Shown here: one piece after another, positions 13,871 to 60,089 of the stretch
Position numbering within the stretch: position 1 is the stretch's first letter
How the letters are laid out: each line of letters begins with the position of its first letter
Virus record (IMG/VR): IMGVR_UViG_3300037067_012889
Location: 224,001 to 288,000 of that record
From: a virus
Taxonomy: Duplodnaviria; Caudoviricetes
Reading direction: 5' to 3' (one strand)
Length of the DNA stretch: 64,000 bases
Notes under the pieces: generated by a model
Databases searched by the model: none
Seen by the model: only the letters and a program-made list of their open reading frames with translations
What the model was told of the DNA's origin: nothing
Position numbers and translations under genes: made by a program

Positions 13871-15259
13871 TCACAGATATCTTACAAAACACAATTTTTC
13901 ACCACCATATTTTTTAATGTAGCCGTATTTATCAGCGAACTCGTTTTCTTTTAATCCCATTTTCAGAGCTCTATTATATAATGTCTTTTTATGCATAACA
14001 TGACCAGAAACATCTATATACCAATAACTTGCCGCTACTCTATGGTGTAGTTGGAAATTGCTAGCTTTATAAATCGTCCCAACATGACCGACAGTTGTAT
14101 CGGAATAAGCTACTACGATTTTGCATGATAATTTTTTAAGACATTTCGCAATAAACCAACTTGCGAAATTCTTTTTTTGATATGATGGATGTATACACAA
14201 TCTGGATAGTTCACGAACTTCGCCATCTACTAACCCAAATTGACCCGCTGTATTTTGCCGAAGTGGTGAACTGAAAACAGCACATGCTATCATTTTTCCA
14301 TCGTATTCTGCACTAATACAAAATCCGCCGCGACCTTTACCAATATAATGGTATGAATCCAGAAATAAACGGACATCATTCGTTGGTGGATTAAGTCTAA
14401 GCGATATTTCTGAAAAATCAAAATCCACATCTTGCGTATTTATACCCAGTCTTGATTTTAACTTATCAGCTACCTTATCCTTACAATAAAACTCGTGTTC
14501 CCAAATATATAACATTTCATATTCGGGAAAATATTCAGAAATATATGTAAATTTAGCCCTATCTCGGCTAACAACTCTAGCAAGCTCATGCCAATAATCA
14601 CCCTGACATTCAATAAGAATTTTATGTTCGCCATATGTTATTAGGCAATCGAAGCTATAATAACCAATTCGAGTACCAGGTCCTTCTCGCTCGTAATTGA
14701 TATTTAAAGTGTCAAGTATGTCATATAAAATCAGTTGTATAGAACTATGTGGTCTGTGTTGAGCAAATGATTTGGCTATTGCTATTTTATAACGTTCAGA
14801 TGCTTTCACATCGCGCAATTTATCCTTCGACGCAGCAATAGCAGATAATGTCTTTAATTTATAGTCACTATCACGCCATAACGCTTTTACTGACTCAGAC
14901 GCCTTTTGTGTAAGTGGACTATTAGAAAAGCTATGTGTATTCCTTTTTAGAGATACCTTATGCTTCTCTTTAAATATTGGATCCCTCAACAATTCCGCTG
15001 TACTTGCAACCCTATCAGCACGGTATTCTTCATTTTCCCATTGTTGCTTCATTCTAGCAGATATAGCTGCAGACTCTTTTTTCTTTACACATGATGGACA
15101 CAACCAAGGCATCTGATTATCGACTACTTCATTCTTAACTCTAATAGTTATTATCGCCAATTTTCCGCAATTATCGCAAGAACATATAACTTTGGGTCGT
15201 CTACATCCAGGTAGAATATCATAGCCATACTTGTCTGATGTTGCTTGCCAATCGATCAT
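13871..15259 (-). CDS. Zn-ribbon/helical repeats + Vsr/DUF559-type endonuclease + Mom-like GNAT acyltransferase fusion (copy 1)
   Basis: YSFDC..ILIECQGDYWH..D..K..WEHEF, then YHY.G..AVFSSP..ELSRLC..KNFASWF..AYSDTTVGHVGTIYKASNF. Confidence 0.75.
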   Translation of the reverse strand: MIDWQATSDKYGYDILPGCRRPKVICSCDNCGKLAIITIRVKNEVVDNQMPWLCPSCVKKKESAAISARMKQQWENEEYRADRVASTAELLRDPIFKEKHKVSLKRNTHSFSNSPLTQKASESVKALWRDSDYKLKTLSAIAASKDKLRDVKASERYKIAIAKSFAQHRPHSSIQLILYDILDTLNINYEREGPGTRIGYYSFDCLITYGEHKILIECQGDYWHELARVVSRDRAKFTYISEYFPEYEMLYIWEHEFYCKDKVADKLKSRLGINTQDVDFDFSEISLRLNPPTNDVRLFLDSYHYIGKGRGGFCISAEYDGKMIACAVFSSPLRQNTAGQFGLVDGEVRELSRLCIHPSYQKKNFASWFIAKCLKKLSCKIVVAYSDTTVGHVGTIYKASNFQLHHRVAASYWYIDVSGHVMHKKTLYNRALKMGLKENEFADKYGYIKKYGGEKLCFVRYL

Positions 15260-15285
15260 ATCTTATATACAATACTGAATCGTTC

Positions 15286-16200
15286 TCACTTCGGATAATG
15301 TTCCACAGACTCATATAACAAGGCCGTAGGGTCGATAAGACCAAACCCACTGATGATATTCTTACCAGTCTGGCCAATACTTATTGTCGATTGAGATAAC
15401 AAACTGACTATCTCGTCTCTGGTCAACACAGATCTGCCATCTTTTTTACGTTCTGAAGCTATAAGAGCTATAATACCAGCGACAAAAGGACATGCCATAC
15501 TTGTCCCACTTAGCATTGCCATATTATTTGGTGGCCAGCACGATATGATTTGATCTCCTGGTGCTACTATATCGACACGATCACCACGAGACGAATAATT
15601 TGGGACATGTCTATTACGATCAATAGCACCAACACCAATCGTTTCAAGATATCTGGCAGGATAATTAACAGAATCTAATGCCGGTCCATTATTACCAGCA
15701 GCGCAAACAATGCATGCCTTTTTAGAAACTGCAATAATGGTGTTATGAAGTATGTCTGTCGACATCTTTGTACCAGCACTTATTGAAATGACATCGGCAC
15801 CGTTCGTCATCGCCCACCCAAGACCATTTATTACTGCTTGATCTTGGCATAAATTATTATCGGCCACAACTTTACATATCATCAATTGGCATTCAGGTGC
15901 AACACCAACCACACCAAATTTATTACTGCGTGCGCCAATAATACCAGCACAGTGGGTACCATGCCCGATTTTATCTTCAATGCCATTTGTGCTTCCTGTA
16001 AAGTCAATACCCTGAACTACAGCACCAATAAGATCTTGGTGATGTTGTGCTATTCCAGTATCTAGAATAGCTACTTTTATACCTTGGCCCTTCGTTATTT
16101 TCCAAAGATCTGGGATACCTTCACATATCAAACCCCAGTTCACAGTCTCTGAGAGTGTTCTGTCTACGACGAATGGAGGTATATTAAAGGTATCTTGCAT
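15286..16200 (-). CDS. Subtilisin-like S8 serine peptidase
   Basis: ILDTG, HGTHCAG, AAGN and GTSMACP catalytic motifs. Confidence 0.95.
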   Translation of the reverse strand: MQDTFNIPPFVVDRTLSETVNWGLICEGIPDLWKITKGQGIKVAILDTGIAQHHQDLIGAVVQGIDFTGSTNGIEDKIGHGTHCAGIIGARSNKFGVVGVAPECQLMICKVVADNNLCQDQAVINGLGWAMTNGADVISISAGTKMSTDILHNTIIAVSKKACIVCAAGNNGPALDSVNYPARYLETIGVGAIDRNRHVPNYSSRGDRVDIVAPGDQIISCWPPNNMAMLSGTSMACPFVAGIIALIASERKKDGRSVLTRDEIVSLLSQSTISIGQTGKNIISGFGLIDPTALLYESVEHYPK

Positions 16201-16225
16201 AACGCTTACCCAAGATATCTTTGTG

Positions 16226-18157
16226 CTATCTTAGTATTAGCGTATGCTTCTTATTTGCAACAGGAGGTGCAGATTCTATAGTAATTGGTAATGCGCCGAG
16301 CTGCTCTGCAAATCTCAATATCTCACCAGATACACTGATGTCTGGCGACATCTCAACATATCCAGATACCGGGGCTAACATTGTGGGATCAAGTTTAATA
16401 TGACTATTATCTGAGATATTCAAATCGGCTTGCATCGATTCTTGGAACGGAATCAAACCACCAACAATCTGTGTGGCAGCGTCATTAAGGCCAATCATCG
16501 CTAAACCGAGACTAATAACTAAATCGTCATGATTACCAGGGCCGTCTTCTGCCTCCGTTTTATTTGTATCGCGCCCCGATCGATCCTTCTTGCGAACATA
16601 AATCTGCAATTGCTTCAACAAACGGCGGCTATAAATCTTATAACCACCTTGCGGTTGCAGATAGTCTATCAACGCCTTATTTAATGTTGGTTTCGATGCT
16701 TGCCCGGTGTAGAAACCATATTCGGCAAGTTTGATGTGATTCTTTTTATTTGAGGCCGATGGCTTATCGTTTATATCTTTCTTACGCCACAAATTTGGAT
16801 ACATAAGATCATATCGCATATCATCTATAAAAGCATCACCACCATTATTGCGCTCGATAACCATCAAAGCATTATTGTACCAGCGACCAATATAATCTGC
16901 TAAAAGCTTGAAATGCTTCGGCAGAGTTCGTATCATCATCTCGGCCACTTGTTCTTGGGCATCTATATCAAGAACTTGTAAACCGAAGTAATCACGCCCC
17001 TTACCGGTCGCTATATCGATTCCTATTGAATATCGATGTGGCTGTTCACCCGGATCTATAAGACGCCTACCCTGATATGTGGGCCGAGTACCATGTACTG
17101 GTTTTTTCCATATCCATAAGCCCTCATCTTTATCCAACTCACGTTTGTTCCCGTTAAAATCAAGCATTAAATGCTCATTTTTAACGGGATGCACATATGT
17201 CTGTGCTCCCTTGACACGCTTATATGCGTCATTAACTGTTGTTGAGAAGTAGGCCAAAACTTTGAGATCGAGGATCGTATCGCCAGATCCGACAAATTCA
17301 GCTAATATTTCTTGTCTGAACTTCCATGTCTCACCGCGCTCTTGAAGACCACGATATTGTTCTTCCAACCACGGAGACCATTTTGGACCATATTTTTCTA
17401 TCTCTTCGGGAGTTACGCAGTCGCGAATACCGGCAGTTGGCGATATAATCTTCAATTCACCAGTCATATCATCGCGATAGCGGATCTCCCAATCCATATC
17501 CCACCAATCAATATTGATTGGATGAAAGTCATTAAATCCGGCAACTGCGTCCGTCCATGTGCCCCAATACCAACCACCAACACCGGATGTCGTCGAGACT
17601 ACTATAACACTACCACCATGTATCAACGTAGGTTGACCAGCTGCCCACATCACACCCATATTTGGAATAAACGCAGCTTCATCGATAATATTCAATGACG
17701 AAGCATTGGACCGCAATACGTCTGGGTTTGAAGTCAGCGATCTAATACGAGATCCGTTCGGAAATTGTACTTCGTGTTCATTCTCTTTTACCGGCTTCCA
17801 GGCATCTTGCATCCATTGAGGCAAATACCTAAATAAGAAGATTATGTTCTCACGAAGAAAATTGATAGCATCCTCGTCAGTACGAGATACTATCAATATA
17901 GTCTTATTTGAAAAGAATAATGCAAACCATAACGCAAAAGCACCAGCTATTTTACTAGCACCGGTTTGTCGCGATTTTTTGAAAATATTGAACCGATATT
18001 TGCGAAAAGCATGCAATGCCTTAATTTGATATTTAAAAGGATCAAACGGCAATATGCCAGCTGTTGGATGCTTCGTTTTGCCAAAATTCTTAAGAAAGAA
18101 TATAGTCGATTTTTGGCATCGGCGCACAACTGCAGCTTGTGTTGCTGTCAAACCCAT
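16226..18157 (-). CDS. Terminase large subunit (gp17-like)
   Basis: KSRQTGAS Walker A region, IIDEAAF Walker B, STTSG, FRQE, GIDIATG, HDDLV nuclease motif. Confidence 0.93.
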   Translation of the reverse strand: MGLTATQAAVVRRCQKSTIFFLKNFGKTKHPTAGILPFDPFKYQIKALHAFRKYRFNIFKKSRQTGASKIAGAFALWFALFFSNKTILIVSRTDEDAINFLRENIIFLFRYLPQWMQDAWKPVKENEHEVQFPNGSRIRSLTSNPDVLRSNASSLNIIDEAAFIPNMGVMWAAGQPTLIHGGSVIVVSTTSGVGGWYWGTWTDAVAGFNDFHPINIDWWDMDWEIRYRDDMTGELKIISPTAGIRDCVTPEEIEKYGPKWSPWLEEQYRGLQERGETWKFRQEILAEFVGSGDTILDLKVLAYFSTTVNDAYKRVKGAQTYVHPVKNEHLMLDFNGNKRELDKDEGLWIWKKPVHGTRPTYQGRRLIDPGEQPHRYSIGIDIATGKGRDYFGLQVLDIDAQEQVAEMMIRTLPKHFKLLADYIGRWYNNALMVIERNNGGDAFIDDMRYDLMYPNLWRKKDINDKPSASNKKNHIKLAEYGFYTGQASKPTLNKALIDYLQPQGGYKIYSRRLLKQLQIYVRKKDRSGRDTNKTEAEDGPGNHDDLVISLGLAMIGLNDAATQIVGGLIPFQESMQADLNISDNSHIKLDPTMLAPVSGYVEMSPDISVSGEILRFAEQLGALPITIESAPPVANKKHTLILR

Positions 18158-18726
18158 TATTCATCGCCCGCTGCTGGCTGATCTAGTATCTTCTGTAATT
18201 CAATATCAGTACCAGTTATTGATATGTTGTTTTGTGTATTGCTACCAGTACTTTTAGTAGCAGATAACAGTTTAGAGCGTGAATCTAACAACTTTACTGC
18301 ATGTCCATTCGTGTCAGCGAGAACAGCAAGTGCTTTGACCAATGACATAGTGTCCGTTTCTGCATCGGCATTATTTCTCACTCGTGCTAATAATATGTCG
18401 ATCACAGTATCGATTCTTTTGCGATCGCTCTTTAGATTAGCTTGAACCTCTGTATAATCTTTATCGAATTTGTCGGCTATTATCTTAAGATCGGATAATA
18501 CCATTGGCGTCGATTCTATTGGAAGAAGATCTGGTTCATCTTCTTCCATATCAATCTTCGCATCACTCATTTCCAGATCTGGAATAACGATATCGGTCGA
18601 TGAATTTTCCACTATATCTGGTGGTAGATCTTCAGATATATTCTCTACAACCGAATCTTCTTGCTCTAAATCGCTTAATAGAGACTGTAGCTCGTCATCC
18701 ATACCTTGTACAGCGTCGTCGCTCAT
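18157..18726 (-). CDS. Probable terminase small subunit
   Basis: Coupled directly upstream of TerL; helical core and a NTQNNISITGTDIELQKIL tail like gp16 'NNI.VGST.EL.K.L'. Confidence 0.6.
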   Translation of the reverse strand: MSDDAVQGMDDELQSLLSDLEQEDSVVENISEDLPPDIVENSSTDIVIPDLEMSDAKIDMEEDEPDLLPIESTPMVLSDLKIIADKFDKDYTEVQANLKSDRKRIDTVIDILLARVRNNADAETDTMSLVKALAVLADTNGHAVKLLDSRSKLLSATKSTGSNTQNNISITGTDIELQKILDQPAAGDE

Positions 18727-19760
18727 TAATTCCCTCGTAAATGCTTAATAAGATTCAACAACCATTCAGAATCGTATTGATTAGGTCTCTGCGATAACCT
18801 TGTTGCTATCCTACATAACGATCCAAGATCAGTCATGCCATTTAATGCATCCTTGCATTCAGATAATAATTTTCCATTATTATTGCACAAAAATTCGATA
18901 GCTTCTCGAAATTGCTCTGGGTGTGCCTTATTATGCTTAATCTGCTTCTGAAGCGAACGTCTACCACGTGATGTGGTAGTTGGATCATTGTGGTCTGCTG
19001 GCTCGTGATCTGTCTTATCATCTACTTTTCTACCAGGACTTGAAATTCGTGGTTCTACTTTCTTTGGTCGTAATTGCCGCTGAACACGCTTATTGATACT
19101 GGTTGGACTGGTTTCAGCGATAAATCGATTGAAATCATCAGCAGTTATAGTTTTCTCATCGATCATTCGAAGTATGTTCTTGACTGATTCACTAACAGGT
19201 GCCGGGGACCACCAGCCACCACCACGTTGTTCAAGTTCTCTTTCAGTCAGAGAAAATTCATTCGCGCCTTCCCAGGCAGTCATTGCGGCCTTCAATAGGT
19301 ATTCATCCCCAACAACTCTATTCAGTGTCTCATCTTGTTGCCAGTTAGCACTGTGTGTCTTGCCGTTATAAATAACCAATATTGACCCACTGACATCGTC
19401 CGGATTTTCTGTTATCGACACCCTGATTGGCTTTGTCTCAGTACTTTCACTTACCGATTTCTCGTCTTTCTTAATCTCTTTTCTGACTTCCTTCTCACCC
19501 TCTTTATAATGTTCAGTCTCATCTGGGGCGAGTTCGTGAAGTATTTTTAGAAATTCGCCAGCATGTACACGCTCTTCGTCAGTCACACTAGTCAGTACCT
19601 TTCTCACAAGCTCGTTATCTGTCGCTTCCACAATTTGCATATACATCTGTGCCGCCTCATATTCTGCGGCTATAACAAACCTAATAGCTCGAATAAGTTC
19701 CTCGGCAGTCAATTTCCTACCATTCAAAGGCTCCGAAAATGGCGATGCGAAGTTTGGCAT
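18726..19760 (-). CDS. Ferritin-like (rubrerythrin/encapsulin-cargo type) domain fused to an unknown C-terminal region
   Basis: LIRAIRFVIAAEYEAAQMY...DEERVHAGEF is a di-iron half-site motif. Confidence 0.75.
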   Translation of the reverse strand: MPNFASPFSEPLNGRKLTAEELIRAIRFVIAAEYEAAQMYMQIVEATDNELVRKVLTSVTDEERVHAGEFLKILHELAPDETEHYKEGEKEVRKEIKKDEKSVSESTETKPIRVSITENPDDVSGSILVIYNGKTHSANWQQDETLNRVVGDEYLLKAAMTAWEGANEFSLTERELEQRGGGWWSPAPVSESVKNILRMIDEKTITADDFNRFIAETSPTSINKRVQRQLRPKKVEPRISSPGRKVDDKTDHEPADHNDPTTTSRGRRSLQKQIKHNKAHPEQFREAIEFLCNNNGKLLSECKDALNGMTDLGSLCRIATRLSQRPNQYDSEWLLNLIKHLRGN

Positions 19761-21033: not shown

Positions 21034-22671
21034 TTGAAAGTAATTATGATCGCTAAGATATTAACAAATAAAACTATCCAATTAACCAATATAACAGCAT
21101 GGGAAGAGGAGATAGTAGACAAGCGATTTAGTGCGATGCAGCCGAATGCACGCTTCATCGATTTATCTGGCGGCTCAAGCTGGGATGGTATCTATCGCAA
21201 ATACAACAGAGGCGATAAGACAATAGCTAGACCTTTTCTTGGTGAGCTTCGCGCATTATGCAAAGACAAGGACTTAGTCTTGGTAGTTGAGGACAAAAGA
21301 AAAAGGTCAAAATATAAGCCAATAGATAAATCTTTAATCACCGAAGATTTCTTGCCCGGTATTAAATTAAAACCATTCCAGATCGACGCTATCAAGACGA
21401 TATATAATGCAGAAGTAGGAATTATTAATGTTTCGATGGGTGGTGGCAAAGGCGAATTAATTGCCGGTATGTGCAAAGCACTGCCATGCCCGACAGCCAT
21501 CATCGCAGAACAAATACAAGTCATAGATCAGCTAAAGTCGCGGCTGAAATTGCGCGACGTCTGTAGCGAACCTGGATTATTCTACGCTGGCAAAATGCCA
21601 GCTGGTGAATTAATTATTATTGGCTCAATACAATCGCTTGTCAAGCCAAAGAAACGTCCAGAAAAGCCATTATTAGAGAATTTCAAAAACAGCAAATCTG
21701 GAACTGCTGAAAAGAAATTCGAACACGCACTGGCCAACTATGAAATAAAAATCAAGGCATTCCGAAGTAGGACAAAGAAGGCCGAAGCATTACATAAACT
21801 AATTGGCGCATGTGAAATGATTATCGTCGATGAAGCAGATCTTGCAACATCAACAACATATAAGCACCTATTTAGGTACTGGTTCAAAGGCCGAAGACGT
21901 TATGGGATGACTGGTACTCCATATGATGAAGACAAGCCAGTTGAAAAACTCGTCCTACAAGAACACTTTGGATCTGTAATCTATACACAAAACAGAGAAG
22001 ATGTAGAAAAGGTCGGATTAACAGTACCAGTATCATATTATGCATTAGCATATGGAGAGGATGGTCATAAAGATGAAGCCTCTGCTTTTGATATAGCCAT
22101 CGATGAAATGATGGTACATAGCGAGAAATTTCACAAATTCATCGCAGCGTTATGTAAACGATTCACAGACGAGGGAACACTAATTCTGGTCGAGCGAGAT
22201 GATCTAGGATATGCATTACAAAAGCTTATACCAGATTCCGATTTTATTCACGGCAAGACAACACGGAAGAGAAGACCAGAAATCTTGAAGGCTTTCGAAG
22301 ATCGAAAGCTAAAGGTCTTGATAGGTGGGAAAAACGTCAGGCGTGGCATGGATTTGAAGGGCGGTTGTGAGAATTTAATACTGGCTACTGGTGGCAAACT
22401 TAGTTCAGAGTTTAAGCAGCGAGTAGGTCGCGCCGCCAGATTAAATCAGAAAGGTAGTGCAAGGGTATTCGATATTTATTTTCTATGCAACAAATATCTT
22501 TACGCACACTCGCGCAAGCGAGTCAAGGCAGCAGTAGCAGCTGGCTATGTTTCGAAGGTCATATTTAAAGATGGTAGTGTGGATGGTGAGAAATTCGTGA
22601 AATCTAGATTTCGCAAGCCAAAGCCTAAACTAAAGACGAAAGATTTGCCTGGACAAAAGAAGTTATTCTAA
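21034..22671 (+). CDS. SF2 DNA helicase, UvsW-like
   Basis: LKPFQ, MGGGKG, IIVDEAD, GMTGTP, QRVGRAAR. Confidence 0.85.
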   Translation: MKVIMIAKILTNKTIQLTNITAWEEEIVDKRFSAMQPNARFIDLSGGSSWDGIYRKYNRGDKTIARPFLGELRALCKDKDLVLVVEDKRKRSKYKPIDKSLITEDFLPGIKLKPFQIDAIKTIYNAEVGIINVSMGGGKGELIAGMCKALPCPTAIIAEQIQVIDQLKSRLKLRDVCSEPGLFYAGKMPAGELIIIGSIQSLVKPKKRPEKPLLENFKNSKSGTAEKKFEHALANYEIKIKAFRSRTKKAEALHKLIGACEMIIVDEADLATSTTYKHLFRYWFKGRRRYGMTGTPYDEDKPVEKLVLQEHFGSVIYTQNREDVEKVGLTVPVSYYALAYGEDGHKDEASAFDIAIDEMMVHSEKFHKFIAALCKRFTDEGTLILVERDDLGYALQKLIPDSDFIHGKTTRKRRPEILKAFEDRKLKVLIGGKNVRRGMDLKGGCENLILATGGKLSSEFKQRVGRAARLNQKGSARVFDIYFLCNKYLYAHSRKRVKAAVAAGYVSKVIFKDGSVDGEKFVKSRFRKPKPKLKTKDLPGQKKLF

Positions 22672-24230
22672 TGACTAGAAAGCAGATCTTAAATTCATTA
22701 CAATACTTAGACAATATCGATTGGCTTGAAACCAAGAAAAGATTTGGCTATGTAGAGTCGACAAAACTATCCAATAAGCGTGTTGTTTATAAATGTCCGT
22801 CTTGCAGTAGATTATTCGAAATAACCTATAAAGAAATCAAACGCAAGAGCCAGCCAGGATGCAAAGAATGCGCATTAGCTGCAGTAAGACAGCAAATTAA
22901 CGAATCTATCAAAGCCAATTATATTGAACATCCAGAGCTAATACAACAGATAGCCACACGTGCTAAAAGAGATTGGGATGGTGTAAAAACAAAAGTCGCG
23001 GAAGGCGTGAAGCGTATTTGGCAAAGACCAGATTTTGTTGAAAAGAAGAGACAAGAGTGTATATCTAGAAATAAGATAATCTGGTCAGAAGAAAACAGAG
23101 CAACGACAATTCAAAAAATACGCGACGCCTTTACACCAGAGCAACTGTTAAAATCATCTGATAATTCTCTTGCTAATTGGCGCGATCCATCTTACGCTCA
23201 AAAAATCGCTGATTATTGGGATGACTCTAATCGTCAAAAAACGTCGCAAGCATCTAAGAAGATGTGGATGCGTGCCGGACATAGAGACAAAATGGCAGTC
23301 ATTCGCATCACCCAGCCTCGCACATCTTCTATTCAAGAAATATTATATTCTATTTTAGACGATCTGGGTATCCAATACTACAGAGAATACAGCAATAAGC
23401 CAGCAGACAAAGAGTGTCTTGTAGGACCATACACATTTGATTGTGTTATTCCTAGAGGAAATAAGACAACATTATTAATAGAATGCCAGGGAAACTATTG
23501 GCATTCTATTAGCGGAAGGTGCGTACGTGATGAGCAGAAAGCTTCATACATATCAAATAACTTATCCGCACAATATGAATTAAAGTGCTTATGGGAACAC
23601 GAGTTTTCATGCAAAGACAAGATAATCGAGACTCTGAAATATTGGCTCGGAATATCTGCTATAGAGCAAATTGATTTCAACTTCAACGACATATCGATTA
23701 AGCTCGCTCCGCCCGCAGACTATAAGCCTTTACTTGGAAAATATCATTACCTTCCAAACGCAGGTCGTGGTGGCATTGCTTATGGTGCTTATCTTAAAAA
23801 TGAGCTTATTGCGGTTTGTGTGTTTTCACCATTAATCAGACAAAATATTTCAATCCAAGATTATGCAAAAAACGAAGTAAGAGAATTGTCGCGCCTCTGT
23901 CTCCATCCAAAATATCGCAAAAAGAATTTTTTATCGTGGTTTGTTTCATCTTGTTTGAGATTACTGGATAAGAAATATCGATGCATTATTTCTTATTGCG
24001 ACACGACATATAACCACACTGGCGCAATCTATAAGGCGTGCAACTTCATATTAGATAGTGAGGTGCCGCCAGATTATTGGTATGTCTCAACTGATGGATG
24101 GATTATGCATAAGAGAACATTATATGGGCACGCGATAAAGATGTCTATGACTGAATCTCAATATGCAGAACTAAACAACTATCACAGAGTATATGGTGAG
24201 AAGAAATTAAGATTCATATATAGTCGCTAA
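22671..24230 (+). CDS. Zn-ribbon/helical repeats + Vsr/DUF559 endonuclease + Mom-like GNAT fusion (copy 2)
   Basis: YTFDC..LLIECQGNYWH..WEHEF; YHY..CVFSP..ELSRLCLHP..KNFLSWF..SYCDTTYNHTGAIYKACNF; TAATG coupling to the helicase. Confidence 0.75.
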   Translation: MTRKQILNSLQYLDNIDWLETKKRFGYVESTKLSNKRVVYKCPSCSRLFEITYKEIKRKSQPGCKECALAAVRQQINESIKANYIEHPELIQQIATRAKRDWDGVKTKVAEGVKRIWQRPDFVEKKRQECISRNKIIWSEENRATTIQKIRDAFTPEQLLKSSDNSLANWRDPSYAQKIADYWDDSNRQKTSQASKKMWMRAGHRDKMAVIRITQPRTSSIQEILYSILDDLGIQYYREYSNKPADKECLVGPYTFDCVIPRGNKTTLLIECQGNYWHSISGRCVRDEQKASYISNNLSAQYELKCLWEHEFSCKDKIIETLKYWLGISAIEQIDFNFNDISIKLAPPADYKPLLGKYHYLPNAGRGGIAYGAYLKNELIAVCVFSPLIRQNISIQDYAKNEVRELSRLCLHPKYRKKNFLSWFVSSCLRLLDKKYRCIISYCDTTYNHTGAIYKACNFILDSEVPPDYWYVSTDGWIMHKRTLYGHAIKMSMTESQYAELNNYHRVYGEKKLRFIYSR

Positions 24231-24315
24231 AAGACAATTCTAAATTAAGAAATGTAATGGCTCGCGCTATAAAAGATTGATAGGCTGGCGACTTTATTAC
24301 TTTGGAGGGATATAG

Positions 24316-24534
24316 ATGTTAGTTAAGACACTGCAAGACGAGAACAATCTAAAGACGATGGATGATGTTATGGCGTTCTGCATTAAACGAGGTGCCACAG
24401 AAATCATTTTTGAAAAGCGTGATGGTGAGTGGCGTATCGATGTCAACTATTGCCCTAATCCGAACGCCACACACCAAAAATATTATGATGTCGATTTGCG
24501 TCCCCGATGTGCTAAGAATCAGAATAATGGATAG
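24316..24534 (+). CDS. Hypothetical protein
   Basis: GGAGG SD; 72 aa. Confidence 0.55.
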   Translation: MLVKTLQDENNLKTMDDVMAFCIKRGATEIIFEKRDGEWRIDVNYCPNPNATHQKYYDVDLRPRCAKNQNNG

Positions 24535-24727
24535 CTCGTCTAGGTTTCGGCGGTACATACAGTTTTAAACAAGCTACATTGTAGTTTTCTGTATGTTTTC
24601 CATCTGTATCGCTATATATGCATGTAGCTGTTTCGCCATCTTCAGTAAAACTTTCTATCATCATTCTGCGGCTGCCAGATTTAAGAACAACAACATCACC
24701 GACCTCTAATTTTCTTTCTTCAGACAT
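24512..24727 (-). CDS. DUF2158/YodC-like small protein
   Basis: LEVGDVVVLKSGS..M.IE motif. Confidence 0.7.
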   Translation of the reverse strand: MSEERKLEVGDVVVLKSGSRRMMIESFTEDGETATCIYSDTDGKHTENYNVACLKLYVPPKPRRAIHYSDS

Positions 24728-24751
24728 TTCAATTTCTCACTTTCTCGTCAT

Positions 24752-27700
24752 CTAGATCTGGCAAGTATCTCCATCACAAAACTTCGTACCGATAGCATCG
24801 TCCATTAAGTCTTTATCGAAGTTAAGAGGTTTCAACTTCGCATTATATGCAGCAACTTCCTCTGGCGTAGCTGGCTGATATGGCTGCTGCGGGTATCCGT
24901 TATTTTCTATCGGCAAGAAGCTAACACCCTTCAATTCATCGTCAAATGATTCGAGAACAAACGGAATATCTTTTGCTTCTTCCGGTTTGAATTGAATCGT
25001 GCAAGACACTTGATTATCGGCCCAATATCTCTGATAATCAACGGCATTCTTTGTTTGCTGCCAAATCGAAATTTCAGATACTGATGGAACATCTGGCTCT
25101 GATACACCAAAACGAACAACACTAGTCTTGTCGTCAGTAACCGCTTTCTCTACGTGATATCCGGCCTCAAGCAATGATTTAATTAAGGTGCTATCACTCG
25201 CAACACGAACATTTCGCCAATATGATCTAGTTGGTGCGATAGTGAAATGTATACCGGCAGTAGCGCCAGCCAATAATGACACAGATCCACTCGGTTTAAC
25301 ACTAGTACATTTCAGAGATTTACTCACGCACAGCCACTCAGAATAAATCTCATCCCAATGCCGAACAACTTCGTAGCCCTTATTGCAGAAATCTTCTAAA
25401 ACCTGCCGACGACCAAACTTGGCGAATGCTTGGATGATACCACTTTGCGACAGCCCGATGCGCCGATTACGCAAAAGAACAGAGTTTGTCTTTTTGCAAT
25501 GCGTAGGTAGAAGCGTTACCGTTTTGGCATAAAGATAAGCAAACTTCAAAGTGCGATGATAATCAGCAGCATCTTCGTGGTGTGCTGGAAACGTTTCACA
25601 TAAGCAGCAAAGTTCAGCATCTTCTAACGATTGCTCGCCGCAATTACCTACTTCACAACCTTCAACAACAATTCTGTGTTCAGACGGCTCTGTCAGGCAA
25701 TATGTATCACCTTTTCCGATTGGTTCGACAGATACAACATGAGTATATCTGCCCGTATTCGAATTGTTCGAGCCGCGATGCTCTGAGAGCCATTTGCGTG
25801 CTTCAAGCATCTTTTCTGGTTGAATAAATCCGATCTGATCAAGAAATGCTTCTACTTGCTTACGACCAGAGATAATTAACTCCCAACCAGTCTTACAGTC
25901 ATAAAGTTTCTTACCGCCCTTACCATCATTCATCAATTGTTTATGTGTTTCTCTGCGGAATTTAACAGAACTAGCAATACCAAATTGCGAGAGCAATAAC
26001 CGGCAATCAAGCAGCAACTCTCTATTAGCTTGCCAAATTCTGGCAGATATTGTACCATTATCTGTTATATGTATATATCCGTCAGCAGATGCAAAACCAC
26101 GTAAAAACGCAGCAACTGTTTCACGAGTACCACACCAGACTGAATTTGGTACAACATGCTTAGCACCAGAATCAACACCATCGGACCTCAACATGCGGCC
26201 AAGAACGTTCGATCCGATCGTCATTTCATCGTGCTCGAAATATTCTTGCTCACGATGCCATCCAGCATAAGCAGGTGTCTGGTTCGACGACATGTTATGA
26301 GCGGCATATAATTCGAACATCAGACCTCGCAGTTTCGGTAATACTACATCAATATCACTCTCATAGCATGTGCACTGCGCTCGAATTTGACCATCTTTCT
26401 TTGGCGATAGCGAACCATCACCAATAGTCCAACCAGCTAATTCAGCATATGCTGGGTCGTGATATGTACCAAAATGCACAGCGTGATTAAGAGGTATCAT
26501 ATCTCCGATTTTCAGATCACGTAAGAAGGTCCGTTGCTCATCATAATGAACCTTCTTTTGCACACGTTGTCTTGTCAGAGTAATAAATTCGTGTGTAGCA
26601 GTTGCATCGATACTTGATCCATCACTGAATCTGACACGGAAGAGATCGACACCCATACCAGTTCGATATACGTTAGTAGCTGGTACCAGACCGTTCTTAT
26701 TGACAATACGCATTTCTCCATAAATCGAAAGTGGGTCGTTACCAAGACTATGGTATTCATGCTGTCCCGTTGCCATCCATATGTCTTCCAACCTTGCATA
26801 CCCATCGGCTGTTAACAACCGCGTATCGCCAGTAAAGCATGGGTTTGTACCAATAGCTCGCTTGTCGATTCCTTCTTGACGGCCATCAATTGCACGTCCA
26901 TAATTCTGCACATTATCGAGCCATAAACATCCAGGCTCTCCGTTACCAGCAATCTGTTCAGCAACGCGGCGATAATCCATACCAACTTTAGCAAATATTG
27001 AATTATTAGATGCCCAGCGATGAGAATTAAGCTGCTCACTGAACAGCGTTTTATCCTTCATCTGCATGTAATCCCAATCGGCCGGATCACCCAATGCAAT
27101 TTCGCTGCTGCGACGAACGTTACCAGCAACAACACATCTGCCTATAAAGTTCATGAAATCGACGATATCAACACTGGTAATAAGCCGACTTTTGCGTCTT
27201 AATATATTATGAAATTGCTTCGTAACCATTCTATGTAAATCTTTTAAAGTATCCGGACCACTGGCTTTCCCTCCGAATCCTTTAATCTCAGAACCTGCTG
27301 GACGTATCAATGAATAATCAAATCGTACTATCCCAAGCTCCGGCCTAACAGTGAATGATTCAATTAATGCTCGTAGCGAATCAACCCAACCTTCTCGCGA
27401 ATCTTCAATGACCCATTCAGTCTCAAGATCATGCGGCTTAACAGCAGTTACCTTATTTGCACCTCTCGTATCAAATCCGACGCCAACACCGAGCATTGAC
27501 ATATCCATCACGAAACAAAATTGCCATGCCGGATCTTCTGTGATATCCTGGGTACTACAAAAACCACAATTATTTAATGCACTACTACCAACTTTCCACA
27601 TATGTGGTGTGCCCATCACCCACAAACCGCGACCAGGTGGCAAAAATTTGAAGTCCCACATACGTTGGAACATCTCTTGGGCAGATTTCTGTGCCTTAGC

Positions 27701-28087
27701 TCGCGTCCAAGGTAACGCCATACCACCGAACGCAACACCATCTTTCTTCTCTTCACCATCGCTATTCTTCTCCTCGCCGTTCTTTTTCTTCTCGCACCAC
27801 ACCCGTTGTATTTCATAGCAACCTTCTACAACCCGTTGCAGCATATCGACGAATGTTTCTTTTTTACCATCGTCCTTGAGCCGTGAATAAGTGCGATAGA
27901 AGACAAATTCACCAAGTCCATTGTATCCGAATTTCGGCTTCTTGCCAGTGAATTTAGCTATGAACTCTGGGTCGAGTTTGAACGGTGAATTGTCTTTAAC
28001 TGTCTTGCGGCCATTTTTAGAAACCGGATTCCTCATAGCAGTCTTTGGTGTCGGTTTTACTAACGTTTGCACAGCGTCATTCTCCAA
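24752..28087 (-). CDS. nrdJ: Class II (B12-dependent) ribonucleoside-triphosphate reductase containing an intein
   Basis: RTYSR, PPGRGLW, NNC, GVGVGFD, GFGGKASGP, VAGNVRRS, NP|CGEQ, NRRIGLS, TSVKPSGSVS, and C-terminal FCDGDTCQI. Confidence 0.93.
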   Translation of the reverse strand: MENDAVQTLVKPTPKTAMRNPVSKNGRKTVKDNSPFKLDPEFIAKFTGKKPKFGYNGLGEFVFYRTYSRLKDDGKKETFVDMLQRVVEGCYEIQRVWCEKKKNGEEKNSDGEEKKDGVAFGGMALPWTRAKAQKSAQEMFQRMWDFKFLPPGRGLWVMGTPHMWKVGSSALNNCGFCSTQDITEDPAWQFCFVMDMSMLGVGVGFDTRGANKVTAVKPHDLETEWVIEDSREGWVDSLRALIESFTVRPELGIVRFDYSLIRPAGSEIKGFGGKASGPDTLKDLHRMVTKQFHNILRRKSRLITSVDIVDFMNFIGRCVVAGNVRRSSEIALGDPADWDYMQMKDKTLFSEQLNSHRWASNNSIFAKVGMDYRRVAEQIAGNGEPGCLWLDNVQNYGRAIDGRQEGIDKRAIGTNPCFTGDTRLLTADGYARLEDIWMATGQHEYHSLGNDPLSIYGEMRIVNKNGLVPATNVYRTGMGVDLFRVRFSDGSSIDATATHEFITLTRQRVQKKVHYDEQRTFLRDLKIGDMIPLNHAVHFGTYHDPAYAELAGWTIGDGSLSPKKDGQIRAQCTCYESDIDVVLPKLRGLMFELYAAHNMSSNQTPAYAGWHREQEYFEHDEMTIGSNVLGRMLRSDGVDSGAKHVVPNSVWCGTRETVAAFLRGFASADGYIHITDNGTISARIWQANRELLLDCRLLLSQFGIASSVKFRRETHKQLMNDGKGGKKLYDCKTGWELIISGRKQVEAFLDQIGFIQPEKMLEARKWLSEHRGSNNSNTGRYTHVVSVEPIGKGDTYCLTEPSEHRIVVEGCEVGNCGEQSLEDAELCCLCETFPAHHEDAADYHRTLKFAYLYAKTVTLLPTHCKKTNSVLLRNRRIGLSQSGIIQAFAKFGRRQVLEDFCNKGYEVVRHWDEIYSEWLCVSKSLKCTSVKPSGSVSLLAGATAGIHFTIAPTRSYWRNVRVASDSTLIKSLLEAGYHVEKAVTDDKTSVVRFGVSEPDVPSVSEISIWQQTKNAVDYQRYWADNQVSCTIQFKPEEAKDIPFVLESFDDELKGVSFLPIENNGYPQQPYQPATPEEVAAYNAKLKPLNFDKDLMDDAIGTKFCDGDTCQI
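25643..26839 (-). mobile_element. Intein with LAGLIDADG homing endonuclease (399 aa)
   Basis: Begins CFTGDTRLLT, block B ATATHEF, LAGWTIGDG and FLRGFASADG blocks, ends TYCLTEP..HRIVVEGCEVGN before the +1 Cys. Confidence 0.92.
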
Positions 28088-50890: not shown

Positions 50891-50912
50891 GTATGTCTGT
50901 GAACTTTTGAAA

Positions 50913-53048: not shown

Positions 53049-53086
53049 ATATGACAGAGGCCAGCTTTCGCTGGCCTCTGTCATAT
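53049..53086. terminator. 17-bp stem hairpin between convergent genes (probable bidirectional terminator)
   Basis: atatgacagaggccagc-tttc-gctggcctctgtcatat. Confidence 0.75.
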
Positions 53087-53100
53087 AACTGATAATAGAA

Positions 53101-55974: not shown

Positions 55975-56128
55975 TGTTGATCTCCGTTGTCTAATAACCG
56001 AACTATGATAAATTTGCCGACAACCGCAAGAAACGCGGCAAATCTCAATTTCTCTTTATCGATTATGCATTACAAAACCGATAGGTATTCTTCTATATAT
56101 TTAGTTCGATATATATGGCGACCAACAA

Positions 56129-56392
56129 TTATACTATATTGTTATTATTAGAGTTATCAGATTTCTCACTATCATGCAAGATCTTTATGATTCGCTTCGA
56201 TGTCAAGTTAGAGATCTGCGATTCATTTAAGAAGCTCTTAGGTAAACGGACAGTCTTTCCTGGATTCAGATAGATAGTTTGCTCGTGTAGAAAAAAGTCG
56301 CCAGCAGGTGGCCTGACAGAAATAGGAACCATTTGCTTACTACAATTGTAAATCTGTACAACATAATTGTGCTCTTTAATATTCTGTTTCAT
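56129..56392 (-). CDS. Hypothetical protein
   Basis: AAGGTGG SD; AGTAAATA upstream. Confidence 0.6.
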   Translation of the reverse strand: MKQNIKEHNYVVQIYNCSKQMVPISVRPPAGDFFLHEQTIYLNPGKTVRLPKSFLNESQISNLTSKRIIKILHDSEKSDNSNNNNIV

Positions 56393-56450
56393 AAACCACC
56401 TTAATCGCTAGATGTTAATATTAGCCATAGAGGTATTTACTTCTCAAATA

Positions 56451-57299
56451 TCACGATTCAATAAACAATCTAGTTGTATCGCCACGTCCAACTGCCAGTG
56501 TGTTATTCGAAATAGATTCCTTTATAGCTGTGACGTGGCCAAGTATTGTAGGTACTATTAATTCGGGTAACGGCAGCCAAGCTTCGGCTGTCATCGAAAA
56601 TTCATATCGCGTTTTAGCCTTTTGATCGAAACCGGCTTCTTTTTCACTGGCATCGGTCGATCCATCATATCTAAGCTGCACACTACCTCGTAAATGTTGA
56701 TCGCACATAACAAATTCAGCTAACGGATTAAATCGCGGCAAAATCTGTTCAAGAGCATAATCAGCATCTCTCTTCCAAGAAGCCCATACTGTTAAAGTAT
56801 ACTTAACCAAGAATGGAACCGGCCTTCTGACCAAAGCGACACGGTCCATTCTACTACTTGTATATCTTCTAGCCATTGGTAGCATCGGTGTACTAAACTT
56901 CTGCGGGTTAAATTCATGGCTAATTCTACTAATAGCCGCGACAGGTAATTTTACTCTGCCATCTTTCAGTTGATCGCGCCATATGAGGATGCTCTTATCA
57001 CCACCAGCTATCTTAACTCTCATGAACCGATATGCATCTTTTGTTGGTATCCTGATCCCGGACCAATAAGTTTTCATGGCTTCGTCAAGGGCACGAAAGC
57101 CTGGCATTATAAATTCTTGAATAAACTCGGGCTGCGTCCCGAGAGGATCACCAAGCTTAGAACGACCTCCTTGAACATCGCTACTCTGTGCTACACCTGT
57201 CGGTATTCGATCGATATGTGGGTTAAGCTCAGGACCTGGAACAGGGCGAGATGTGCGGGCTTGTTCTAATACATCATCTTTAAATTCATGGATAGCCAT
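56451..57299 (-). CDS. Tail terminator / sheath stabiliser (gp15-like)
   Basis: LPVAAISR, PVPF..Y.L.VW....DA...EQILPRFNP. Confidence 0.75.
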   Translation of the reverse strand: MAIHEFKDDVLEQARTSRPVPGPELNPHIDRIPTGVAQSSDVQGGRSKLGDPLGTQPEFIQEFIMPGFRALDEAMKTYWSGIRIPTKDAYRFMRVKIAGGDKSILIWRDQLKDGRVKLPVAAISRISHEFNPQKFSTPMLPMARRYTSSRMDRVALVRRPVPFLVKYTLTVWASWKRDADYALEQILPRFNPLAEFVMCDQHLRGSVQLRYDGSTDASEKEAGFDQKAKTRYEFSMTAEAWLPLPELIVPTILGHVTAIKESISNNTLAVGRGDTTRLFIES

Positions 57300-57652
57300 T
57301 ATGTGCCCTGATTCAGTAGTGATACTAAATTATTAGGAATAGAACCACTACAAATTCCTGTTGTGGTGGCACCAATACGATCCATTAAATCTTTGAATTC
57401 CTCTTCTATTCTCGTCCGTTCCAATTTATCAACCCATTCCTCAATCTTCAAAGATATCGACGATCCATTCGGTGTCTGTTTTATTGATACGCTTACAGTA
57501 TCCTTGCTACCCAATTTTTCTAATTCTTTACGAATAGCAGTACGAAAGATATTGCCTACTCTACCAGCCTTAGCTTCTAAGTCGAGGCTAATTTGACCTA
57601 ACAACTCTCGTGGGTCTGAGAACGTCTTCATGACTTCAATCGTTTCATCCAT
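57299..57652 (-). CDS. Hypothetical protein
   Basis: Coupled ORF in the neck operon. Confidence 0.6.
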   Translation of the reverse strand: MDETIEVMKTFSDPRELLGQISLDLEAKAGRVGNIFRTAIRKELEKLGSKDTVSVSIKQTPNGSSISLKIEEWVDKLERTRIEEEFKDLMDRIGATTTGICSGSIPNNLVSLLNQGT

Positions 57653-58250
57653 TCACCTCGTCAGTATAATCATCGATAGTGTGTATCATATCTTGCGCTG
57701 GTCGTATGTTAACATCACCAACTATTAATGTCGTATCACATCTAAGATACAACCATGTATATCTAAAATTACCAACTTCTGATGCATTGTCAATCATGAA
57801 GTACTTAGGGTTCTGTTGCGATTTTGAATCCATCGGAAGTTCTATAAGATCACCTGGGCGGAATAATCTCCTAGGCGAAACACTGACTACTTGCTCAAGT
57901 GCAAATGTGATAACTTGTTTATTAGCACAATCGACACCCCATTGCATTAACTCATATTCCATTGGATTAGGAACAAAAAATCCTTTAAGATGCAATGGAC
58001 TCCAATATGTCGGGTCTGCATCTTCATCGAAAACTTTATCGTGATCCATATTATTTGTGCGGCGGTGTATCACTACAGCCGCACCATCTACTTGGATCAT
58101 CTCCAATGCTACTTTCTTAGCTAATGCTATGTCTGGTGAATCTACATCATATACTTGATATAATGGATTACTTTGTTCGACATCACTGCGGAAGTCTGCT
58201 AAGCCAGGTGTTGCTGGTGTTCCATCGAGAGTACTAAAATTATAAATCAT
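57645..58250 (-). CDS. Neck / head-closure protein (gp14-like)
   Basis: E.IQ..G..V, D.VF.ED, L..WG.D, RPGDLI.LP pattern, plus position. Confidence 0.65.
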   Translation of the reverse strand: MIYNFSTLDGTPATPGLADFRSDVEQSNPLYQVYDVDSPDIALAKKVALEMIQVDGAAVVIHRRTNNMDHDKVFDEDADPTYWSPLHLKGFFVPNPMEYELMQWGVDCANKQVITFALEQVVSVSPRRLFRPGDLIELPMDSKSQQNPKYFMIDNASEVGNFRYTWLYLRCDTTLIVGDVNIRPAQDMIHTIDDYTDEVNG

Positions 58251-58257
58251 AAGTTAC

Positions 58258-58782
58258 TCACATTGATAAAGGAATATCATCGACAGGACTGTCTCGTGGA
58301 TCATTACCATAATAGTATGGACCAAACAATAATGATGGAGTGATTCCAAAAATTTCACCTTCTGGAACATATCGTTTTACAGGCGGAGGCATTTGTTCTT
58401 GGAAATTCTTCGTCGATGGGCACCAACCTTGATTCAAAACGGCGCAATCCGGTGGCTGCCGTGGCATTTCTTCATTTCCGCCAAGACTACGAAGAATACT
58501 ATAATAATCGGGCATTGGCGTACATGGGCAATTTATATAATATGGGGGCAGTACGAACCATTTCTTACTAGATCCATTTGATTGCCCATTATTTATTTGC
58601 CATTCTATGGTAGAACCGGGAATGGCAGCCAACGCAACGGATAATTTTACATATGTGCTCTTGCAATTACGGAGAAAAGAAAGACTTGAAGTAGTAAAGG
58701 ATGCCTCTGGTTCGCATCCCGGAATAGCTACACTATCTTGCCCGACCACTTCAAGCTTATTAGCTATGTAGATCTGTCGCAT
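58258..58782 (-). CDS. Hypothetical Pro-rich protein
   Basis: 174-aa ORF whose start is overlapped by the end of fusion copy 3. Confidence 0.55.
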   Translation of the reverse strand: MRQIYIANKLEVVGQDSVAIPGCEPEASFTTSSLSFLRNCKSTYVKLSVALAAIPGSTIEWQINNGQSNGSSKKWFVLPPYYINCPCTPMPDYYSILRSLGGNEEMPRQPPDCAVLNQGWCPSTKNFQEQMPPPVKRYVPEGEIFGITPSLLFGPYYYGNDPRDSPVDDIPLSM

Positions 58783-60089
58783 TTGTAAATAAACCTATGT
58801 TTTGGACCACCATATATTTTAATGTAGCCATATTTCGCAGCATACTCTGCTTCGCCTAATCCCATTTTACATGCGTGGTCCCATAAAGTCTTTTTATGCA
58901 TTACATATCCTGCATCAGACACATACCAGTATGACGGTTTAGTATTGCCATCATACCGCCAATTTGATGCCTTGTAAATTGTACCGGTATGATTATATGA
59001 ACTATCGGAGAACGCAATGATAGTAGTTACTAATGGTTTATCAGACCGAAGCATCTTAACACACCGTGCAAGAAACCAGCTGGCAAAATTCTTTTTATGA
59101 TAAGATGGATGAATACAAAATCTTGTCAATTCAATCAATTTACCTTTTGGTAGCCCTAATCTTGTTGATGATTCATTTCTAGTGGGCGAGTCGAAAACAC
59201 ATACCGCGATCACGTCATCTCCTAACATAGCGGCATATCTAATACCAGACTTATTAATTCTACCAGCGTAATGATACTTCCCTAAAAACAATTCAGATTC
59301 TAACCTATCTATTGATACCAATTTCAATTCATGTAATTCAAATTGGACAATGTCCAGTGTTTTGCCAGTCCAATATGCCAATAAATCAAGTATTCGTTGT
59401 TTACATAGGAATTCATGTTCCCATAGATATTTAAGAGTATATTGTGGAAAGTTTTTTAAGTACGTAGCCTTCTGTTGGTCTTTGATTATCGCCTGCGGAC
59501 GCTGGTGCCAATAATCGCCCTGGCATTCTATTATTATATTATGATCTGGCAAAAAACAATCATATGACCAGAATCCAATTAATTTTTCTGGTTCATAGGC
59601 GATATTTAAATCGTCGAGAAATGAATAAAGAGTCTTCTGTATGTTCGATATTCTACCGAGCTGGTTTGCGGCCAAACACGCCATTTTCTCTTTAATAGAA
59701 GCATAATTGCCACACATTTTTTGCCGATATTTAGCATCAGACCATTGTCTATGCATTTGCTCTGAAATTTTAGCTGATCTAATTAGCCCAGCTTGACTAT
59801 AACTACGTACTTTAATATCAAACTTTTTTAGCAATTTCCCTATAGATGGTCTGTCCAAACCAATAACTTTCGATATCTCTTCTGTAGACAAGCTCTGTTT
59901 ACAATATAAATCATATAATTGTTCTTTAGTGACTAGAGATGTACGACTTTTTCTACGTATAACATTAAACTCTTTTAGCAACTTACAAACCATAGCGGCA
60001 GAACAGTTAAATCGCCTAGCAAGATCACATACCCTAGATCCAGCATTATATTGCTCAACGATTAACTCTACGTTATTTGTAATGTTCAT
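58764..60089 (-). CDS. HTH repeats + Vsr/DUF559 endonuclease + Mom-like GNAT fusion (copy 3)
   Basis: WSYDC..IIIECQGDYWH..WEHEF; FLGKYHYAG..CVFDSP..ELTRFCIHP..KNFASWF..AFSDSSYNHTGTIYKASNW. Confidence 0.75.
   Translation of the reverse strand: MNITNNVELIVEQYNAGSRVCDLARRFNCSAAMVCKLLKEFNVIRRKSRTSLVTKEQLYDLYCKQSLSTEEISKVIGLDRPSIGKLLKKFDIKVRSYSQAGLIRSAKISEQMHRQWSDAKYRQKMCGNYASIKEKMACLAANQLGRISNIQKTLYSFLDDLNIAYEPEKLIGFWSYDCFLPDHNIIIECQGDYWHQRPQAIIKDQQKATYLKNFPQYTLKYLWEHEFLCKQRILDLLAYWTGKTLDIVQFELHELKLVSIDRLESELFLGKYHYAGRINKSGIRYAAMLGDDVIAVCVFDSPTRNESSTRLGLPKGKLIELTRFCIHPSYHKKNFASWFLARCVKMLRSDKPLVTTIIAFSDSSYNHTGTIYKASNWRYDGNTKPSYWYVSDAGYVMHKKTLWDHACKMGLGEAEYAAKYGYIKIYGGPKHRFIYKCDRST

Follow-up and report, generated by a model that had tools for sequence, protein, structure and literature searches.

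Three probable Hef-type homing endonuclease genes carrying a Mom-family domain in an uncultured jumbo phage

Nucleases joined to a Mom domain have been described in two separate literatures, as "Hef-like homing endonucleases" and as "Mom-REase momylation systems" (REase, restriction endonuclease), and the two names cover one protein family. Hef-type enzymes were placed by Taylor et al. in the Vsr-like EDxHD family (PMC3239194), whose homing endonucleases are defined by the composite motif Glu, Asp, Asn/His, His, Asp (PMC3239194); U5 hef cleaves nrdB (PMC2988022), and the T4-like phage 133 has a single hef-like gene (PMC2993671). Under the other name, Iyer, Anantharaman, Krishnan, Burroughs & Aravind (2021, Viruses 13:63; PMC7824862) described Mom-REase fusions in jumbo phages, proposed that momylation shields phage DNA while the nuclease attacks other DNA, and cited PA5oct for five momylating enzymes. 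The Mom protein of phage Mu is itself an N6-adenine modifying enzyme whose glycine donor is Gly-tRNA(Gly), not acyl-CoA (PMC13219725). Here we describe three genes, hefA, hefB and hefC, in bases 224001-288000 of a 363,885-bp virus record rated 100% complete (IMGVR_UViG_3300037067_012889); this 64,000-nt stretch is the DNA analysed and is called the window below. Based on sequence and structure prediction, we propose, with a rough probability of 0.72, that they are free-standing Hef-type homing endonuclease genes carrying a Mom-family domain.

The source is a jumbo phage of ~364 kb, uncultured and known only from metagenomes. A nucleotide search with its portal region returned no match among cultured phages, and the best terminase match among them, to Flavobacterium phages, has 29% identity; by these comparisons the phage has no close cultured relative. 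The combination of nuclease and Mom domain is already known under both the Hef and the Mom-REase names, and the window genes are further members. A first-pass annotation made from the letters alone had pointed to Hef-like annotation of related genes, and the same architecture is indeed found in RaK2 ("hef"), AR9 ("Hef-like homing endonuclease"), PA5oct ("putative Hef-like homing endonuclease"), phiR1-37 (g171) and many Campylobacter copies, and is not new. PA5oct, with its member annotated as Hef-like, appears in both literatures.

Hef and Hef-like proteins (U5, as described in reviews, and 133, RaK2, AR9, PA5oct, phiR1-37, LIMEstone1 and Campylobacter) resemble the window proteins in having a Vsr-like nuclease followed by a GNAT/Mom-like domain, variable N-termini, free-standing positions beside essential genes and, often, several copies per genome. 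They differ in that the cultured-phage members are only 21-26% identical to the window proteins, and the Mom signature is much better preserved in the window subfamily, which passes the Pfam Mom cutoff that the phage 133 copy fails. The Mom-REase "momylation" fusions of group 2 jumbo phages likewise share the architecture and the idea of modifying self and cutting non-self. Iyer et al. (2021), however, read them as a conflict system resembling restriction-modification with an acyl-CoA donor, whereas the genes studied here show homing-type turnover and would be expected to use an aminoacyl-tRNA donor (PMC13219725).

Architecture and conservation of the three hef proteins

The three open reading frames (ORFs) lie exactly where the first-pass annotation placed them (Table 1), and every motif that it quoted falls among the more than 100 columns that are invariant in their alignment. 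These include SxIQ, FDC, IECQGxYWH, WEHEFxCK, YHY, ELxRxCxHP and KKNFxSWF and, further along, GxIYKAxNF/W, YWY and MHKxTL. Pairwise identity is 40-43% (40-41% for hefB and hefC against hefA), and the common C-terminal core spans ~335 aa (hefC residues 105-441) rather than the roughly 290 aa first estimated. A search of the entire 363,885-bp record found exactly three copies, and because the paralog matches have E-values of 1e-80 to 1e-83, their paralogy is not a matter of chance.

All three genes are single, co-oriented and closely packed amid conserved essential genes. Next to hefA are the portal gene, with the S8 protease and large terminase genes, and hefB is flanked by a helicase gene and a convergent ribonucleotide reductase (RNR) gene, in agreement with the placement originally given for these two. 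The "neck operon" named for hefC could not be confirmed: this gene lies within a late structural block, and the ORFs on either side of it are without family matches. The 3' ends of the hef genes overlap or abut the start regions of the essential genes downstream, by 19 nt in the case of hefC and a 174-aa gene. The 64-kb window contains no tRNA genes, and no com-like regulator turned up beside the hef genes, although no search was aimed at com.

Sequence comparison and structure prediction divide each protein into a variable, putatively DNA-binding N-terminal module, an EDxHD/Vsr-like nuclease and a Mom-family GNAT domain. The N-termini of hefA and hefB are related to each other (E 7e-5), and both begin with a Cys4 motif resembling a zinc ribbon, after which come helical W-x-D-x-x-Y-x-x-K repeats; zinc-finger matches to hefA in Pfam are weak, and neither N-terminus has a significant family match in Pfam or PHROG. 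The N-terminus of hefC matches the N-terminal helix-turn-helix (HTH) modules of phage endonuclease PHROGs, with weak, below-cutoff Pfam matches to HTH_23 and MarR, and weakly resembles the N-terminus of a TnsA-like gene elsewhere in the window (E 0.002). Matches to two PHROGs, 559 ("HNH endonuclease") and 3339 ("homing endonuclease"), run across the nuclease and over most of the Mom domain. Of solved structures, a profile of the three proteins matches two, that of Mu Mom (8bv8) and that of the I-Bth0305I catalytic domain (3r3p). An AlphaFold2 (AF2) model of the hefC core has a pLDDT of 95.1 and a pTM of 0.86.

The nuclease had been described as Vsr/DUF559-type, and this is borne out. In Pfam this part of the proteins gives REase_MTES_1575 matches, all sub-threshold; the profile match to 3r3p has E 2e-3, and Foldseek with a nuclease-only AF2 model (pLDDT 93) places I-Bth0305I first (E 2.7e-4, TM 0.81, 2.9 Å over 97 residues), followed by the DUF559 protein 3hrl and E. 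coli Vsr 1cw0. Conservation was counted over a 79-member family alignment at ~40% identity, built from a full-library HMMER search. In hefC numbering, D177 is present in 79/79 members, E188 in 77, and H195, D204 and K207 in 78 each, and Q190 is Q, N or H. The first position of the EDxHD composite motif (hefC Q151) is Gln in 51 members and Glu in 19, and is Gln, not Glu, in all three window proteins. We conclude, from alignment and model, that the fold is Vsr-like, of the EDxHD homing endonuclease type, with its predicted catalytic residues kept. I-Bth0305I and hefC have in common D196/D177, N208/Q190, H213/H195 and D222/D204 as well as the conserved Glu (E188), and I-Bth0305I has a modular N-terminal DNA-binding region such as the one presumed for the hef proteins. 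I-Bth0305I is, however, intron-encoded, with its nuclease at the C-terminus and no GNAT/Mom domain, whereas the hef nuclease is internal and is followed by a Mom domain of 190 aa.

The first-pass annotation had also recognised a Mom-like GNAT in the second domain, and this too is supported. Against a cutoff of 27.1 bits, the C-terminal 190 aa score 65.8, 72.6 and 84.6 bits with Pfam PF25680 (Mom). Foldseek with the whole hefC core model returns Mu Mom 8bv8 first (E 3.6e-12; chains A and B, 201-203 columns) and ordinary GNATs thereafter. Aligned by hhalign, 35 stand-alone Mom proteins match the fusion family with a probability of 98.7% (E 2.5e-16), and the alignment extends into the HTH-like insertion of Mom (residues 174-187), in which the equivalents of H183 and T186 are conserved. 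The active-site set of Mu Mom comprises H58, Y59, R111, S124, D149, R151 and Y159, and its R111A, S124A and R151A mutants are inactive (PMC13219725). Six of these seven map to hefC H273, Y274, R323, S337, D362 and Y372, each conserved in 78/79 members (S337 as S in 69 and T in 9) and all six invariant among the window paralogs. N334 is found in 78/79, and hhalign shows the equivalents of Mom N121 and H183 to be conserved in the fusion family as well. The likeness to Mu Mom (PF25680; 8bv8) thus takes in the GNAT fold with its Mom-specific HTH-like insertion and the equivalents of H58, Y59, R111, N121, S124, D149, Y159 and H183. The difference is that in the hef proteins a nuclease and a putative targeting module are joined to it and that R151, E150 and W48 are not kept.

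Selection is strongest on this half of the protein. Between hefA and a 93%-identical ortholog in a related contig, dN/dS (the ratio of nonsynonymous to synonymous rates) is 0.16 in the N-terminus, 0.05 in the nuclease and 0.03 in the Mom domain, which is therefore under the strongest purifying selection of the three parts.

The family to which these proteins belong is large, with 412 cluster representatives at E<=1e-30 in the full-library HMMER search; nearly all have the C-terminal core, and their N-termini vary. Among cultured phages, tblastn found 39 records with matches over at least 80% of the core, and query coverage was 57-73% in the Campylobacter and phiR1-37 Hef-like genes. Homology was tested directly for Acj133p179, RaK2 hef, AR9 g188, PA5oct gp328, phiR1-37 g171 and Campylobacter F352_087; six Hef-like proteins of this kind are matched by a family profile with E 2e-29 to 6e-18, whereas the "hef-like" gene of Acj9 was not detected with the family profile. 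The hef-like gene reported for phage 133 is apparently Acj133p179, which alone matches in that genome and is located between gp23 and gp24 (L108:1351-2868; L numbers here and below designate the sequences compared). Its profile match has E 1e-21 and it aligns to hefC across both domains. Pfam nevertheless calls no Mom in it, only a weak Vsr match, and the equivalents of D149 and Y59 are Asn and Leu, so that the second domain seems, from these replacements, to be degenerating or changing in the phage 133 branch. More broadly, distant cultured-phage members retain the H, R, S, G and Y positions, in alignments that are uncertain at ~20% identity, and show drift at Y59 (L/I), at D149 (N in phage 133, Q in PA5oct) and in the insertion.

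Turnover of the hef sites in related phages

Relatives were fetched through the three neighbouring genes, and at the first site, between the S8 protease and portal genes (site A), the contigs compared have a portal N-terminus 96-97% identical to that of the window. The first-pass annotation had likened the genes to free-standing homing endonuclease genes and had named fixation in all relatives as evidence to the contrary. We find the reverse of fixation: all three sites are polymorphic, with presence, absence and replacement.

At site A, L009 has the hefA ortholog and L007 a 66% relative, and in L010, L014, L060 and L061 the hef gene stands in the opposite orientation. Of the copy in L011 (7135-7962), no more than residues 1-278 are left, comprising the N-terminal region and the nuclease; its Mom domain has been deleted and a 3' scar kept. 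No hef gene is present at this site in L005, L006, L012, L013, L015, L016 or L034.

At the second site, between the helicase and RNR genes (site B), five relatives (L085-L089) have both genes ~30-200 bp apart and no hefB, and no hef gene was found at the site in the remaining two (L090 and L091). Here the window has a clean additional block of 2,075 bp (22672-24746), made up of hefB and 516 bp, that is absent from the relatives. The breakpoints, placed by blastn against L085-L089, are at 22671/22672 and 24747-24753, and there is no scar in these five contigs.

The third site (site C), between a 151-aa gene (p151) and the 174-aa gene (p174), is empty in five relatives, holds an unrelated filler of ~450 bp in six and has other inserts in two. 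In L093 it is occupied by a hef gene that is nearer hefA (74%) than hefC (47%). Elsewhere in related large contigs there are 1-4 hef copies whose number and position vary. Gain, replacement, inversion, truncation and deletion are thus all seen at the same intergenic points, as would be expected from the life cycle of a free-standing homing endonuclease gene.

Proposed mechanism and rival explanations

In the reading that we propose, the N-terminal module would bind an extended target, close to the point of insertion, on a co-infecting genome that lacks hef; the Vsr-like domain would then cut that genome, probably as a dimer by analogy with I-Bth0305I; and recombinational repair from the hef-bearing genome would copy the hef gene, with flanking markers, into the cut genome. 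We infer with considerable confidence that the N-terminal module and nuclease cut near the insertion site and that the gene is then copied by repair. It is nearly as probable that the enzyme still makes use of its Mom domain, which would then be no relic, since a dN/dS of 0.03 points to a required, functioning part of the protein. By analogy with Mu Mom, the domain most likely still binds DNA and flips an adenine, and we judge the chances to be roughly even that it also acts as an aminoacyl transferase with a charged tRNA as donor, the role that Gly-tRNA(Gly) has for Mu Mom.

What such an activity would be for is a separate matter. The first-pass annotation suggested that the product of each gene may acylate the gene's own target and cut competitor DNA that lacks the mark. 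This idea is plausible, the likeness to a fused restriction-modification system lying in the pairing of domains, and it is not original, being in print in Iyer et al. 2021 (PMC7824862). The acyl-CoA pocket that it proposed to look for is the wrong criterion for the Mom family, and is obsolete because Mu Mom uses Gly-tRNA(Gly) (PMC13219725). As its purpose we favour either self-immunity, in which the domain would mark the target in the resident genome, though we rate this as less likely than not, or a coupling of target recognition to cleavage; alternatively, the domain may serve as a base-flipping reader. Similarly tentative is the fullest version of the idea, a one-polypeptide mobile "home-and-immunise" element in which an active aminoacyl-tRNA-dependent adenine modifier would mark the resident target site, with the same N-terminal module aiming both nuclease and modifier.

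Several observations weigh against our reading or against parts of it. U5 Hef reportedly cut its own as well as hef-less DNA in vitro (Sandegren et al. 2005), and sequence-based self-immunity is not favoured for this reason, although immunity by modification would be unaffected. Within the active site, Mom R151 is replaced by Thr in 65 and Ser in 6 of the 79 members, and the R151A mutant of Mu Mom is without detectable activity. Where Mom proteins have the invariant motif DERCG, the fusion family has D-[TS]-T-x-x-H, with E150 replaced by Thr/Ser, and the Mom dimer residue W48 is not conserved in the hhalign comparison. Finally, a pristine target was not recovered at two of the three sites, where "empty" alleles carry hef 3' remnants: those at site A keep the decayed last 18-20 hef codons within the 55 bp before the portal ATG, and several at site C keep 40-70 bp of the hef 3' end. 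Long-past residence followed by repeated loss would therefore also fit these two sites. In L016 the last hef codons at site A are still intact, with synonymous differences.

The active site of the Mom half is, as judged from these alignments, similar to that of Mu Mom and not identical to it. Three residues past the R151 position there is a near-invariant new His (hefC H367), and this, with the replacement of R151, is the main reason for doubt over transfer activity. The two changes could also mean altered chemistry, with a different donor or adduct.

The rival explanation that survives best, though we still consider it unlikely, is an exapted, non-catalytic Mom domain, its fold kept as a DNA-binding, base-flipping or dimerising module that transfers no group to DNA. 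Homing endonucleases commonly take up accessory DNA-binding folds (PMC3943268), and such a history would suit the replacement throughout the family of a residue essential in Mu Mom, the loss of W48, the drift of Y59 and D149 in distant Hef-like proteins and the failure of Pfam to detect Mom in phage 133. It does not sit well with the equivalents of H58, R111, S124, D149 and Y159, which are near-invariant over 79 members at ~40% identity, nor with the persistence of most Mom-equivalent residues in distant cultured-phage members. This exceeds the usual need of a scaffold, and the Mom half also has the lowest dN/dS.

We regard as improbable the conflict system of Iyer et al. (2021), in which Mom would modify the phage genome broadly against host restriction, the REase would degrade unmodified DNA of the host or of superinfecting phages, and patchy occurrence would reflect arms-race turnover. 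This prediction is published for jumbo-phage Mom-REase fusions, which occur in several copies per genome, such as the five in PA5oct (PMC7824862); both active sites are conserved, and multiple copies with differing N-termini could cover several sequence contexts. Against it, the genes are single, co-oriented and tightly packed between conserved essential genes, and a given intergenic site can be occupied by different hef lineages, in either orientation, or by truncated copies or scars, which is the free-standing homing pattern. In addition, the best match of the nuclease is a proven homing endonuclease, members are annotated as Hef-like, U5 hef cleaves near its own locus, and N-terminal modules of such length and variability point to extended, specific targets and away from short restriction sites.

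Least probable of all is that the hef genes are old, domesticated residents that no longer home, are mainly lost by deletion and are kept for marker exclusion or control of neighbouring late genes: strong purifying selection, the decayed 3' piece in all "empty" S8/portal and several p151/p174 alleles, and 3' ends that overlap or abut downstream essential-gene starts would agree with this, but the hefB block has clean boundaries and is scarless in five relatives, the same sites are also taken by hef genes of other lineages and in the opposite orientation, and further copies lie at different places in related contigs, all of which argues for continuing gain and loss.

Other mobile elements and significance

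The coordinates of the hef genes, their predicted domains and associated features are collected in Table 1.

Table 1. Features of the three hef loci; positions are those of the window unless a contig is named, and domain assignments are predictions.
Feature	Position	Strand	Evidence and remarks
hefA	13871..15259	-	462 aa; between S8 protease and portal genes; Pfam Mom 5.6e-18, PHROG 1384/559/3339
hefA N-terminal variable region (aa 1-165)	14765..15259	-	Cys4 zinc-ribbon-like motif and helical W-x-D-x-x-Y-x-x-K repeats; presumed DNA-targeting module
hefA EDxHD/Vsr-like nuclease (aa 166-275)	14435..14764	-	profile match to 3r3p; conserved D, E, Q, H, D, K; dN/dS 0.05
hefA Mom-family GNAT (aa 276-462)	13874..14434	-	PF25680 residues 302-440; dN/dS 0.03
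hefB	22671..24230	+	519 aa; start overlaps helicase stop (TAATG); Pfam Mom 4.7e-20
hefB nuclease (about aa 216-332)	23316..23666	+	alignment; weak MTES_1575 REase match at 248-312
hefB Mom-family domain (about aa 333-519)	23667..24227	+	PF25680 residues 341-517
516-bp segment found only together with hefB	24231..24746	.	small ORFs 24316-24534 (+) and 24512-24727 (-)
hefC	58764..60089	-	441 aa; Pfam Mom 9.7e-24
hefC tandem helix-turn-helix modules (aa 1-104)	59778..60089	-	PHROG 8446/12058/7545, E 7e-10 to 7e-11
hefC helical linker and EDxHD/Vsr-like nuclease (aa 105-250)	59340..59777	-	AF2 pLDDT 93; 3r3p TM 0.81, rmsd 2.9 Å
hefC Mom-family GNAT with HTH-like insertion (aa 251-441)	58767..59339	-	8bv8 best PDB match, E 3.6e-12; hhalign 98.7%
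GTATATA-N4-ATG motif at hefA start	15257..15270	-	resembles T4 late promoter; kept in L009 ortholog only
GTAAATA-N4-ATG motif at hefC start	60087..60100	-	motif scan
hef 3' end at S8/portal and its remnants in relatives	13866-13930; L005, L012, L013, L015, L016 and L034 ~7945-8000; L011 ~7960-8000

Within the retained hef 3' piece lies ATTAAAAAATA, and the piece may provide the downstream gene with its expression signals; the persistence of such pieces may be due to their abutting the starts of downstream essential genes. The portal gene itself (11935-13863, minus strand) is 96-97% identical in protein sequence to those of L009-L016 and L034 over its first 446-460 aa and only ~80% identical in DNA. 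Its acidic, Gly/Glu-rich C-terminal tail is not conserved, and the flanking genes have 70-86% protein identity.

A further motif, GTAWATA-N4-ATG, occurs three times in the window (expected 0.6; 3 of 100 shuffles reach three), always on the minus strand: at hefA, at hefC and at the start of the TnsA-like gene (62249-62262), with no others. It resembles the T4 late promoter TATAAATA, and only a putative promoter role is ascribed to it. We rejected the motif as a component of the mobile unit because, among 19 hef copies of relatives, it is retained only in the hefA ortholog of L009.

The TnsA-like gene (61241-62251, minus strand; 336 aa) is a fourth free-standing endonuclease-like gene, in which tandem HTH modules are combined with a TnsA-like endonuclease N-terminal domain (PF08722, scoring 33 bits where the cutoff is 26.5). 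Of the relatives, L105 has this gene and L098 a remnant of it, whereas most others lack it. The RNR gene (24752-28087, minus strand; 1111 aa) contains an insert of ~350-400 aa (roughly aa 418-815) that is absent from L085-L090 and present in L091. This insert is probably an intein, given its LAGLIDADG domain (PF14528, 56.7 bits), a weak intein-splicing match and its patchy presence. Likewise, the helicase, S8 protease, portal and large terminase genes of relatives are each interrupted by inserts of 0.4-1.4 kb (L091:4641-6001; L007:3843-5056; L071-L077 at ~8273-8745; and the terminase of L035, L043, L046, L048, L049, L063, L079, L083 and L084), each of which could be an intron, an intein or an endonuclease gene. 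Mobile elements abound in this group of phages.

For this phage, the outcome is ordinary annotation, in which three mobile endonuclease genes join a number of other mobile elements. For the family, which is large (412 representatives) and in which both active sites are strongly conserved, the role of a Mom domain within a homing endonuclease is a genuine question and one that is now directly testable, since the identification of Gly-tRNA(Gly) as the donor of Mu Mom provides a concrete assay. If the Mom half modifies the target site, selfish nucleases would have a further, novel means of protecting the genome that carries them, and tRNA-dependent DNA modification a second natural example; if it is inert, it would clearly illustrate how an enzyme fold can be put to new use in reading DNA.

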